This document shows positions 17,900-37,935 of a stretch of 64,000 nt of DNA, in pieces (within the stretch, counting starts at the first letter, position 1; each line of letters starts with the position of its first letter). Source of the DNA: Octopus vulgaris. Taxonomy: Eukaryota. The stretch is from positions 3,596,001 to 3,660,000 of the forward strand of contig OX597842.1 in assembly GCA_951406725.2 (NCBI GenBank), in the 5' to 3' direction. The notes beneath the pieces are model-generated. The model saw only the letters and a list, made by a program, of their open reading frames with translations, searched no databases and was not told the origin of the DNA. Both the position numbers and the translations under genes were made by a program.

Positions 17900-18013
17900 A
17901 TCTGTAAATATAATATGCGACACTTATTCAGTAGCCATGATAACACTCCGACATCCGAAACTCGGAGTTTTATCATGGCTACCGAATAATTGTCACATAT
18001 TACATTTACAGAT
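17900..18013. mobile_element. Short foldback element, same family as 20634-20900
   Basis: About 52-bp inverted arms around CATCCGAAAC; only the GAAAC/stem III half of the hammerhead remains. Confidence 0.7.
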
Positions 18014-18670: not shown

Positions 18671-19091
18671 TATACACATATATATATATGTGTATATATA
18701 TCTAGAGAAGGACTCAAATATCTATGTCGTGCAAATTACAGCTACTAAAACCCTGCTATAAATATCTGTAAGAGGACGTGGAAATTTTACGACTCCATGT
18801 TCACATATCAACTCCCTAGCCGCCGCCCCACCCACGACCACCACCGCAACCGCCGCCACCACCATCTGCCCACTCCGTTTCGTCCGCGCCACCATCCCCC
18901 TCCGCCGTCCTCAAAAGACTACAAAACCCCATCCCTAACCCCTAAACCACCCCTAATCCATACATCACCCTTTATTGAATGTCATTAATAAAACAAAAGC
19001 ATTCTTTGCAGACCCCTTAAATCTATTTTACTAAGTAGGGGAACACTTCTCTCTGCCCCCACCCCCCCAACCTCCATCACAAGTCAATGTT

Positions 19092-19580
19092 ATAGTAGTA
19101 GTAGTAGTAGTAGTAGTGGCGTTGGTAGTCGTCGTTGTCGTTCTACTGGTAGTGGTAGTGGTGGTAGCAGTATTTGTGTTGGGGGTTGTAGTAGAGGTGG
19201 TGACTCTAGGAGTAGTAGTAGCGGTGATGGTGGTTGATTGTGGCGGTGCTGGTAGTAGTGGTAGTAGTAGTAGCAGCTGCAGTAGTAGTAGTAGTAGTAG
19301 TAGTAGTAGCAGTCGGAGTAGTAGTAGTAGTAGTTGTAGTAGTAGTAGTAGTGGTGGTGGTGGTAGTAGTAGAGGTGATGTTTTGGTGGTCCAGTTATAG
19401 TAGTAGTAGTAGCGGCAGTAGTGGTAATGATAGTAGTATTGGTAGTTGTAGTAGTATTTGTAGTAGTTGCTGTAGTAGCGGTAGTAGTGGAGGTGATAGT
19501 AGTGGTAGTTGTAGTAGTAGTAGTACTACTACTAGTAGTAGTACTACTACTAGTAGTAGTAGTGCTGGTAGTGGTAGTCG
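19092..19580. repeat. Compound (AGT/GGT)n microsatellite
   Basis: Direct reading. Confidence 0.9.
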
Positions 19581-20035
19581 TTTTTGCTAGTATTTAGCTC
19601 TAGGTCACCGCAAGATTTTTTCAGATGTACTACCGTCAAAAGACGTTCCATGCGTGACCACCCTCTATAGTTTTCCTTTCTGACCATAGTATATTTAAGA
19701 TTGTATTAATTAAGGTATAGTATAGTAGTTAGTATTCGGTTTTATAGCTGCTACTGTTGTTTAGCCCATGGTCAGTGCTGATCCAGTAACCGATGATCAA
19801 AGAAATTCCGGCAATGACCATACCGTCTTTTCTTCAGTCATAGTATATCTAAGGCTACATTACCCAATGTTTAGTATAGTAGCTAAAATTAGTGATTATA
19901 GTTGCCGATATATATTCAGGTAATTAATGATCAAGACGTTCCAACTATGGCCATCTCACTAATGTAGGAGAAAGGGTGCGACTACGAATAGAATTTAGTA
20001 ACTTTTTTCGGAAGTGTATATATATATATATATAT

Positions 20036-20463
20036 ATAATCAAAATAAACAACAAGGATATCCAGAGGTAATGCAGTACGATCGTTTCATGCGACTTCAT
20101 TTAATTGAACAATGCAAACATTACATCAATTTAAAATGTAGAGCAATCTTCAGCTGCATAAAAATATAGAATTTAGTTAAATTCGAAGGACTCATTTGTA
20201 TAATTTTTATCCAAAATCACCAAGAGGATAAGGAGATAGACAAAGATAAAAATTATACAAGTGAGTCCTTCGAATTTAACTAAATTCTATATTTTTATGC
20301 AGCTGAAGATTGCTCTACATTTTAAATACTAGCAAAAACGACTACCACTACCAGCACTACTACTATTACTACTACTACTACCACTACCACTACTACTACT
20401 ACTACTACTATAACATTGACTTCCATTACCTCTGGATATCCTTGTTGATTGTTTTGATTATAA
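20036..20463. mobile_element. Foldback element between (TA)n tracts, with a hammerhead in the left arm
   Basis: 20129-20212 is inverted at 20244-20328, and 20036-20073 is inverted at 20424-20463. Confidence 0.8.
20071..20159 (-). ncRNA. Type-I hammerhead ribozyme candidate
   Basis: Minus strand ATGCAG-CTGAAGA-[long stem II]-GAAAC-GATC-GT-A-CTGCAT: 6-bp stem I, palindromic stem III ACGATCGT, GUA cleavage triplet. Confidence 0.7.
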
Positions 20464-20556
20464 TCACCTTATTTTGAATTACATGGATAATACCATACCA
20501 AATTCTGGTGCCTTTAACTTAAGTACCATATTCATCTGAATCTAAATTTTACTGAA

Positions 20557-20606
<50 letters not shown>

Positions 20607-20633: not shown

Positions 20634-20900
20634 GTAAAATAATATGTGACAATTATTTGGTTGCCATAATATAACTCCGAGTTTCGGATGTCAGGGTGGA
20701 AATCTGCTCCGGCATCTCGTCAGTTATTAAGACAATCAAAAGATGTCGTAATAACTGACGAGATGCCAGAGCAGATTTCCGCCCCGACATCCAAAACTTG
20801 GAGTTTTATTATGGCTACCGAATAATTGTCACATATTTTACAGATAAATTCCTCTATTTACATAATATCGAGGTCTCATTCATTCTTTTGTTGTCATACT
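20634..20900. mobile_element. Foldback element with paired hammerhead motifs
   Basis: Arms 20636-20728 and 20749-20841. TAATAA-CTGACGA-GATG...CATC-C-(G/A)AAAC-TYGGA-GT-T-TTATTA occurs at 20749-20811 (+) and 20670-20728 (-). Confidence 0.75.
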
Positions 20901-35720: not shown

Positions 35721-36994
35721 CTATTTGCCTGTAATATCCGTAACACATGAGTGCGTATGTGTGTATGTGTGAGCGTATATACATACATATATACGACGGG
35801 CTTCTTTCAGTTTCCGTCTACTAAATCCACTCACAAGGCTTTGATCAGCCCGAGGCTATAGTAGAAGACACTTGGCCAAGGTGTCACGCAATGGGACTGA
35901 ACCCGTAACCATGTGGTTGGCAAGCAAGCTCCTTACTACACAGCCACTCCTGCGTCTAATGTATGTATAAGTGTGTGTGTGTATACAGCTACCTCAGTGT
36001 GATATCCCTCCGACAGAGATATCCCCTCCCCTGCCTTATTCCACGATGTTATCAGTTGTCTGTGATCAGCGGTGGTAACCTGGTCAGTCTGGAGGACCGT
36101 AGAATTAGCCATCGCTGAAATTCGATCCCCACCGAAACTTCGCGAGGGGCCGGGACGGTAAGGGGACCGCCAGACGATCACTGGCACTATGTTGCTGTTG
36201 TTCTAGTCGTTGTTGTTGGTGGTGGTATTGTTCTTAATAGTGTACGTTGTTGTTGGTATTTAATACAAGTACCTACGGTGGTGAGGATGGTGGCAGCGGC
36301 GGTGGTGGTGATGGTGACGACGACAACGAGGTCTACGATGGGATCTTTTCATTTTGAAGGCCAGATTTTCCTAGTTAACTAAGCAATTTGAAACTTCGTA
36401 TACTGGTAGAATGTGTCAAAAGAAAACATTATTGTAAACAAAATTGAAAACAAAATTGTAATTCGTAACTTAAACGTAGATTAATTTTAAGAATTTTAAC
36501 CAATGAAATCGCAGCATTCGAGCTCAAATTATTTACGTCTTCTTCTGTCTTCTACATGTGCTAGAAATGACAGCTATATCTCTTAAATCGATTAATTTCG
36601 TCGCCCAAAAAAAATATTAAGGATATTTTTTGAATATTTTCTTTATTTTTTTTTACCGAAAAGGCTTCTCCCATGGTTTTAAAGGGCCAGAAACAACAAA
36701 AATAAAACAATAATATGCCTAAATCGGTCTCGAGTTTGCGCGTGGAGTGTGAGTGGTATTGTAAAAATTTGCGAAATATTTTTTCATAAAAGGATGCCCC
36801 CAGCTTGTCGGAAGCTGTGATATAAATTGGGAAAAAAATCCTCGACACCAGTGCGTAATTGGTACTTAATTTATCGACCCCGAAACGATGAAACATTGCC
36901 CCCCCCCCCCACTTCTGGTTTATTTACCTTTTGTGCAAATTTGTTTCGGCAAGTGGCAAAACACGAACGTGTATTTTTGCTTGTGTGCGTATAT

Positions 36995-37935
36995 GTATAT
37001 GTCCGTTTGTATGTGTGTGTACGCTTATATATTAATTACTATGTGTGTGTATATGTCCGTTTGTATGTGTGTGTACGCTCATATATTAATTACTATATGT
37101 GTGTGTGTGTGTGTGCGTGTGTATGTCCGTTTGTATGTGTGTGTACGCTTATATATTAATTACTATATGTGTGTGTGTGTGTATATGTCCGTTTGTATGT
37201 GTGTGTACGCTTATATATTAATTACTATGTGTGTGTGTGTGTGTGTGTGCGTGTGTATGTCCGTTTGTATGTGTGTGTACGCTTATATATTAATTACTAT
37301 ATATGTGTGTGTGTGTGTGTGTGTATGTCCGTTTGTATGTGTGTGTACGCTCATATATTAATTACTATATGTGTGTGTGTGTGTGTGCGTGTGTATGTCC
37401 GTTTGTATGTGTGTGTACGCTTATATATTAATTACTATATGTGTGTGTGTATATGTCCGTTTGTATGTGTGTGTACGCTTATATATTAATTACTATATGT
37501 GTGTGTGTATATGTCCGTTTGTATGTGTGTGTACGCTCATATATTAATTACTATATGTGTGTGTGTGTGTGTGCGTGTGTATGTCCGTTTGTATGTGTGT
37601 GTACGCTTATATATTAATTACTATATGTGTGTGTGTATATGTCCGTTTGTATGTGTGTGTACGCTTATATAATAAAAAAAACTATATGTGTGTGTGTATA
37701 TGTCCGTTTGTATGTGTGTGTACGCTTATATATTAATTACTATATATGTGTGTGTGTGTGTGTATGTCCGTTTGTATGTGTGTGTACGCTTATATAATAA
37801 AAAAAACTATATGTGTGTGTGTGTGTGTATGTCCGTTTGTATGTGTGTGTACGCTTATATAATAAAAAAAACTATATGTGTGTGTGTGTGTGTATATGTC
37901 CGTTTGTATGTGTGTGTACGCTTATATATTAATTA
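36995..37935. repeat. Minisatellite, about 15 units of ~55-72 bp
   Basis: Unit TATGTCCGTTTGTATGTGTGTGTACGCTTATATATTAATTACTAT plus a variable (GT)n. Confidence 0.95.

Follow-up and report, generated by a model that had tools for sequence, protein, structure and literature searches.

The question raised by this locus of Octopus vulgaris is how 100 nt of local DNA came to lie, in inverted orientation, inside one arm of a foldback made by a transposable element. The window is the whole stretch of 64,000 nt that was analysed, and all positions given here are positions in it. The insert is found at 20323–20422 on the reverse strand, where its first five bases (20323–20327) are microhomology, and its source is an old, degenerate (TAG/TGG)n tract with two unique ends at 19081–19596 on the forward strand; the interior of this tract departs from TAG/TGG at 16% of positions. 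The initial annotation described the insert as the reverse complement of both unique flanks of the microsatellite, with about 516 bp of source represented by about 100 bp, and both statements hold. The reverse complement of the insert is identical to the left end of the source over 34 nt (19081–19114) and to its right end over 43 nt (19554–19596), and 516 nt of source are condensed to 100 nt. In the 2.80-Gb assembly, an 18-nt word of the left flank and a 24-nt word of the right flank each have two exact occurrences, one in the source and one in the insert, while the reversed words used as controls have none. A piece belonging to the element consensus at other loci, which the same annotation had proposed to look for, or to some other repeat, is ruled out by this distribution of the flank words. 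The template is unique DNA near the target.

The foldback (20035–20560) is a head-to-head pair of element 3' ends between two (TA)n target runs, at 20017–20034 on the left and 20559–20605 on the right. The left arm (20035–20246, reverse strand) is the inverted, 5'-truncated 3' end of a Penelope-like element and ends at the short 3' end of the element; it is 97% identical to other copies and 94% identical to the terminal repeat of the near-full-length copy L276. The right arm lies in sense orientation on the forward strand and is interrupted by the insert. Its 5' part (20245–20327) is identical to the left arm at 82 of 83 positions, and its 3' part (20424–20560) starts 3 nt after a predicted ribozyme cut and bears a one-sided tail of about 100 nt. 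Between the two arms, 3 of 122 positions differ. No minority variant is common to both arms across 83 nt, and therefore the timing and origin of the arms are not further constrained.

The family to which these arms belong is abundant, with 2452 candidates; of two short words, one has 1751 exact matches and the other 1694. Two alternative 3' ends, separated by about 100 nt, are used by its copies, many of which lie in TA runs and many of which have a truncated copy in inverted orientation on their 5' side. The arrangement seen in the window, namely an inverted, 5'-truncated copy with a tail at one end, in which a left arm that stops at the short end stands beside a tailed right arm, recurs in many of the copies L002–L020. 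Long copies (L263, L265, L267 and L276) have a cysteine motif ahead of an endonuclease. Copy L276 (2832–7690 of that locus) is degenerate with broken frames, and shows in order reverse transcriptase (RT)-like fragments, a long asparagine-rich linker, the endonuclease, an AT-rich UTR of about 1.6 kb, the hammerhead and the tail; its RT-like motifs were assigned by eye and are putative. The endonuclease piece of L268 has GIY-YIG as its top Atlas match (0.94; 182/256 features; Pfam on 52% of members); against this, Pfam gave no significant match for 7/7 fragments. Judging from this order in the long copies, the host is an endonuclease-bearing Penelope-like element, with an RT followed by a C-terminal GIY-YIG domain, and it is probably of the Neptune or Nematis type, a clade marked by a CX2-5CxxC-type motif between RT and endonuclease. 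In the accessible text of PMC8557442 and PMC11167929, endonuclease-bearing elements of the Neptune/Nematis type are described as 5'-truncated, with an adjacent inverted copy and a one-sided tail; they insert into microsatellites, their terminal repeat contains a hammerhead, and their RT is followed by a CxC/CxxC motif and then GIY-YIG. The family differs from those descriptions in its tail of about 100 nt instead of 30–40, in a hammerhead stem II much longer than the 7–8 bp described, and in the captured host DNA, which is absent from the accessible parts of both sources.

A non-LTR retrozyme, consisting of head-to-tail non-coding monomers that each carry a hammerhead, was considered as the host and rejected, since the window is head-to-head and the long copies lead into a coding body; as far as the tandem retrozyme is described in the accessible part of 10.64898/2026.07.22.740005, the foldback of the window is not one. 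The copies L039–L138 and L160–L259 form at least three subfamilies with a common hammerhead region; upstream of it and in the tail, the subfamilies part from one another at fixed points.

The left arm holds an intact type I hammerhead motif with a long stem II (20072–20158, reverse strand), and its predicted cut falls between 20077 and 20076. In the right arm, the 55 nt whose mirror is 20074–20128 have been lost and the insert stands in their place. The lost segment held the predicted cut together with the GAAAC-GATC-GTA core and the distal half of stem II, in agreement with the earlier reading that the GAAAC half of the hammerhead had been displaced. That reading also placed a TAAAT microhomology at one junction. 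It is present at the left junction, where the 5 nt at 20323–20327 are common to element and source, and at the right junction the single base 20423 matches neither of them. In the accessible text of PMC4209133, the minimal type I hammerheads of Penelope-like elements likewise have a short helix I, an unpaired base before helix II and a tiny helix III with a palindromic loop, and occur as opposite-strand copies 100–700 bp apart; here helix II is extended and the right-arm copy is destroyed by the insert.

The match between source tract and insert is not due to chance, and the insert junctions are read from the assembly alone. An artefact of assembly or polishing would therefore have to be weighed, and inverted repeats are reported to trouble assemblies made from short reads in the part of PMC8557442 that could be consulted. 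We regard such an artefact as scarcely credible, because there are differences between insert and source and, at the 3 positions given above, between the arms, and because comparable structures occur at other copies. A fold-back read chimera would, moreover, be expected to give one pivot, against the three pieces that lie here inside the element.

The three pieces are given by the best colinear parse of the insert, which needs 2 mismatches in 100 nt, against 6 for a parse with one jump. Piece A derives from 19081–19107 (27 nt, no mismatch; the exact match can be extended to 19114), piece B is likely to derive from 19497–19523 (27 nt, 1 mismatch) and piece C derives from 19551–19596 (46 nt, 1 mismatch, the last 43 nt being exact), all on the forward strand. 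The placement of piece B is modestly favoured, as a 30-nt scan gave 2 mismatches at the 19497 site and 3 at 19322. The pieces are joined through TAG repeats. The second gap of the parse takes out the TAC blocks of a perfect 38-nt palindrome (19524–19561, a TAC/TAG inversion), which are missing from the insert, and the DNA hairpin of 19512–19561 has a predicted energy of about -14 to -15 kcal/mol. By eye, 19386–19412 inside the tract resembles the left flank plus a TAG run, a hint of an old internal duplication.

The interior of the tract was either passed over in copying or absent when the copy was made. The initial annotation left both ways open, and proposed in the second case that the insert preserves a snapshot of an ancestral tract that later expanded about five-fold. 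The insert does read as a seamless short tract with both ends. In the window, the element copy carries about 6–8 minority bases in 432 nt relative to the family majority (1.5–2%). The insert and its source differ at 0/48 unique positions and, under the best parse, at 2/100, which gives the insert about the same young age as the element; a divergence of 2% fits the age of the element. The skipped interior holds 173 distinct 6-mers that are missing from the insert. When the insert repeat was grown to source length by duplication and mutation in simulation (300 runs per rate, with ordinary point-mutation rates assumed inside the repeat), 173 novel 6-mers were reached in 0/300 runs at 1.5%, 0/300 at 3%, 2/300 at 6% and 235/300 at 12%. 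The raw edit count of 71, which was reached in 1/300 runs at 1.5% and 20/300 at 3%, is less discriminating and taken alone is compatible with expansion, as duplication amplifies variants. For this same reason, a Poisson test of interior degeneracy (P<1e-15) was overstated and was set aside in favour of the distinct 6-mers.

Further evidence on the age of the interior comes from its repeats and from the assembly. The longest exact internal repeat of the interior is 21 nt with one variant unit, or 16 nt with two, which does not indicate a long recent duplication. Two 29-nt interior probes (≤2 mismatches) matched only this site in the assembly and revealed no donor, and import of the interior in one step from another tract was rejected on this basis for the two probes in this assembly. 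Long degenerate trinucleotide tracts are, furthermore, common in the window. Since the variety of 6-mers needs a mutation level of about 12%, no long recent internal duplication is present and no donor was found, the interior most likely predates the copy by far, and was already in place but passed over when the copy was made. An ancestral snapshot is thus very improbable. In a weak form of it, only the 27-nt TAC block of the palindrome may have arisen after the copy was made. Of the earlier proposal, local templated copying by template switching and the skipping of the repeat interior are retained, while the snapshot before a five-fold expansion is not. Such copies are mosaics, and an earlier repeat length should not be inferred from them.

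A short tract may also have existed as a contracted allele, on the homologue or in cis and later gene-converted, in which case the insert would record a derived allele with a deletion, copied in a single pass. Loss of sequence between TAG runs is a plausible event. Fewer template switches would be needed, and the locus is polymorphic, as two contigs of run X1 differ from the window by 3 and 9 of 196 nt just downstream. Public contigs were compared for 4 of the 24 runs listed; each of the four shows the unique upstream flank of the element, which is about 5% diverged in X2, X18 and X19. We nevertheless hold a contracted template to be improbable, because the long allele would have to be placed in cis, within about 440 nt, by a second event, and because the unique ends of the insert are identical to the source in cis (the 0/48 above).

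Skipping of the interior may have occurred during integration or afterwards, and other copies of the family were surveyed for inverted unique local copies at their edges. For each of two anchors, the first 100 matches were taken, and all of these lie on contig C1. Of the 200 loci fetched, 4 were second arms and 20 were shared or duplicate loci; without these, 176 independent loci remained. Inverted unique local copies were found at the 5' edge in 5/176 other copies (L050, L088, L099, L160 and L179), against 19/4994 control positions (0.4%; Fisher P=0.001). These copies are 27–46 nt long and come from 85 to about 900 nt away, and in L179 the inverted local piece lies between two arms, as in the window. 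The pooled figure of 5/176 was reached after the scoring rule had been changed to count both members of a pair. Under a strict one-sided rule, the first set gave 3/96 (P=0.02) and the replication set 0/80, with a pooled P=0.057; under the symmetric rule, the second set rose from 0/80 to 2/80. At the 3' edge, inverted local copies were found in 3/176; L229, at a 3' edge, may belong to another palindromic repeat. The enrichment at the 5' edge points to template switching during integration. In L082 (1600–1962), the 3' end is joined to a 95-nt inverted copy of downstream DNA, and by its motif this downstream DNA resembles another Penelope-type RT fragment.

At its right junction the insert meets the element 3 nt from the predicted ribozyme cut. 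Among copies anchored beside the predicted cut, 12/100 start within 3 nt of it, a strong hotspot in that set. In a tail-anchored control, with its anchor distant from the cut, the cut itself scored 8 events per 395 nt at risk (P=0.011 relative to the overall background), the 8 including one duplicated locus and loci in common with the first set. The same control gave 17 events per 1421 nt at risk in the 21 nt just 3' of the cut, and 1 event per 351 in the 7 nt just 5' of it. Per nucleotide at risk, the cut exceeds the 21 nt on its 3' side by a factor of only 1.7, although it stands well above the 7 nt on its 5' side, and for this reason run-off of the RT at the hammerhead cut is a lead and not a result. 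Palindromic words near the cut also draw fold-back junctions. Across 44 aligned sequences the hammerhead core and its palindromic loop are conserved; position 7 is variable. Rfam gave no match of the hammerhead region at the gathering score, and the fold is no better than that of shuffled sequences (MFE z-score -0.32). Genomic support for self-cleavage of the predicted hammerhead is indirect and weak. According to the accessible text of PMC11167929, hammerhead cleavage is unnecessary in vitro and no RNA reads end at the cut. In L085 (1177–1895), a near-perfect palindromic copy turns at the hammerhead cut, and 175 nt of host flank are duplicated in inverted form outside both TA runs.

Templated insertions have been reported during L1 integration (10.1101/2024.08.27.596794; PMC11702581). 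As far as the accessible text of these reports goes, genomic DNA from near the target is copied into the new copy in stretches of less than 250 bp, which is attributed to growing cDNA leaving the RNA or to end processing, and the usual template lies within 15 bp of the site, against 0.7–1.2 kb here. The present case also differs in that the host is Penelope-like and that the copy, inside the sense arm, skips a microsatellite interior in about two hops. Considering the L1 precedent together with the enrichment at the family edges and the junction beside the cut, we favour copying at the time of integration. We think, with a slight preponderance of confidence, that the insert is an inverted copy of the two tract ends made in several hops during integration, with the old interior skipped.

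As far as we can infer them, the steps and the parts played in them by enzyme and ribozyme would then be as follows. The endonuclease would have cut a (TA)n run, and both DNA ends would have been extended on element RNA, the right arm from the long 3' end and the left arm from the short 3' end and then back into sense. The right-hand cDNA would have stopped at or beside the hammerhead cut, and its 3' end may have paired with exposed DNA upstream, at a distance of about 1 kb from the target, through an imperfect microhomology of about 2 nt. About 27 nt would have been copied, followed by a forward slip of about 390 nt through TAG-to-TAG register and the copying of a further 27 nt, and finally by a slip past the 38-nt hairpin and the copying of 46 nt. 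The product would have been joined to the other extended end through TAAAT, so that 55 nt of the element were never laid down. The DNA-templated part could be the work of the element RT or of a host polymerase.

The same hops could have been made later, during repair of a break inside the foldback after its insertion, by microhomology-mediated break-induced replication or polymerase-theta end joining with multi-hop skipping, for example after the hairpin arms had been cut as a cruciform. The element lies on both sides of the insert, 55 nt were lost and a 5-nt microhomology is present, which speaks for such repair, and the ages fail to separate simultaneous from slightly later events. In the accessible text of PMC7165422, microhomology junctions and iterated templated synthesis, with direct and inverted local copies made in several rounds, are typical of polymerase theta, but its tracts are rarely longer than 10 bp per round. 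Here the rounds are 27–46 nt and the source is about 1 kb from the junction (0.7–1.2 kb). Inverted local copies are also enriched at the 5' edges of the family, and a random break would be expected within 3 nt of the predicted cut in only a few cases in 100. Later repair is in our opinion the less likely course of events, albeit one that deserves serious weight.

Copying during integration, if it holds for this locus, may extend to the family. We would suggest only tentatively, and with more doubt than belief, that the Penelope-like RT leaves the 5' end of ribozyme-cut RNA and jumps to DNA up to about 1 kb away, hopping between microsatellite registers. If this is true, thousands of copies would hold a readable record of template cutting by the hammerhead in vivo, and host DNA would have been copied into about 3 in 100 insertions of these elements. 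A literature search, mostly without subscription papers and supplements, found no description of host-DNA capture by Penelope-like elements. The single locus is a clear example of a known scar, and at the level of the family such scars offer a cheap test of how the 5' junction is closed and of whether hammerhead-cut RNA serves as template.

The window contains other repeats. At 20641–20837 there is a second, unrelated foldback of 197 nt, which is MITE-like with arms of about 94 nt (90% complementary), and 54 nt of one of its arms recur at 17948–18001. The interval 19639–19905 holds two decayed copies of a satellite unit of about 150 nt, and the tandem relatives of this satellite are almost all on the same contig, C29. 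A tandem array with a unit of about 62–70 nt and about 14 copies is found at 36994–37935.
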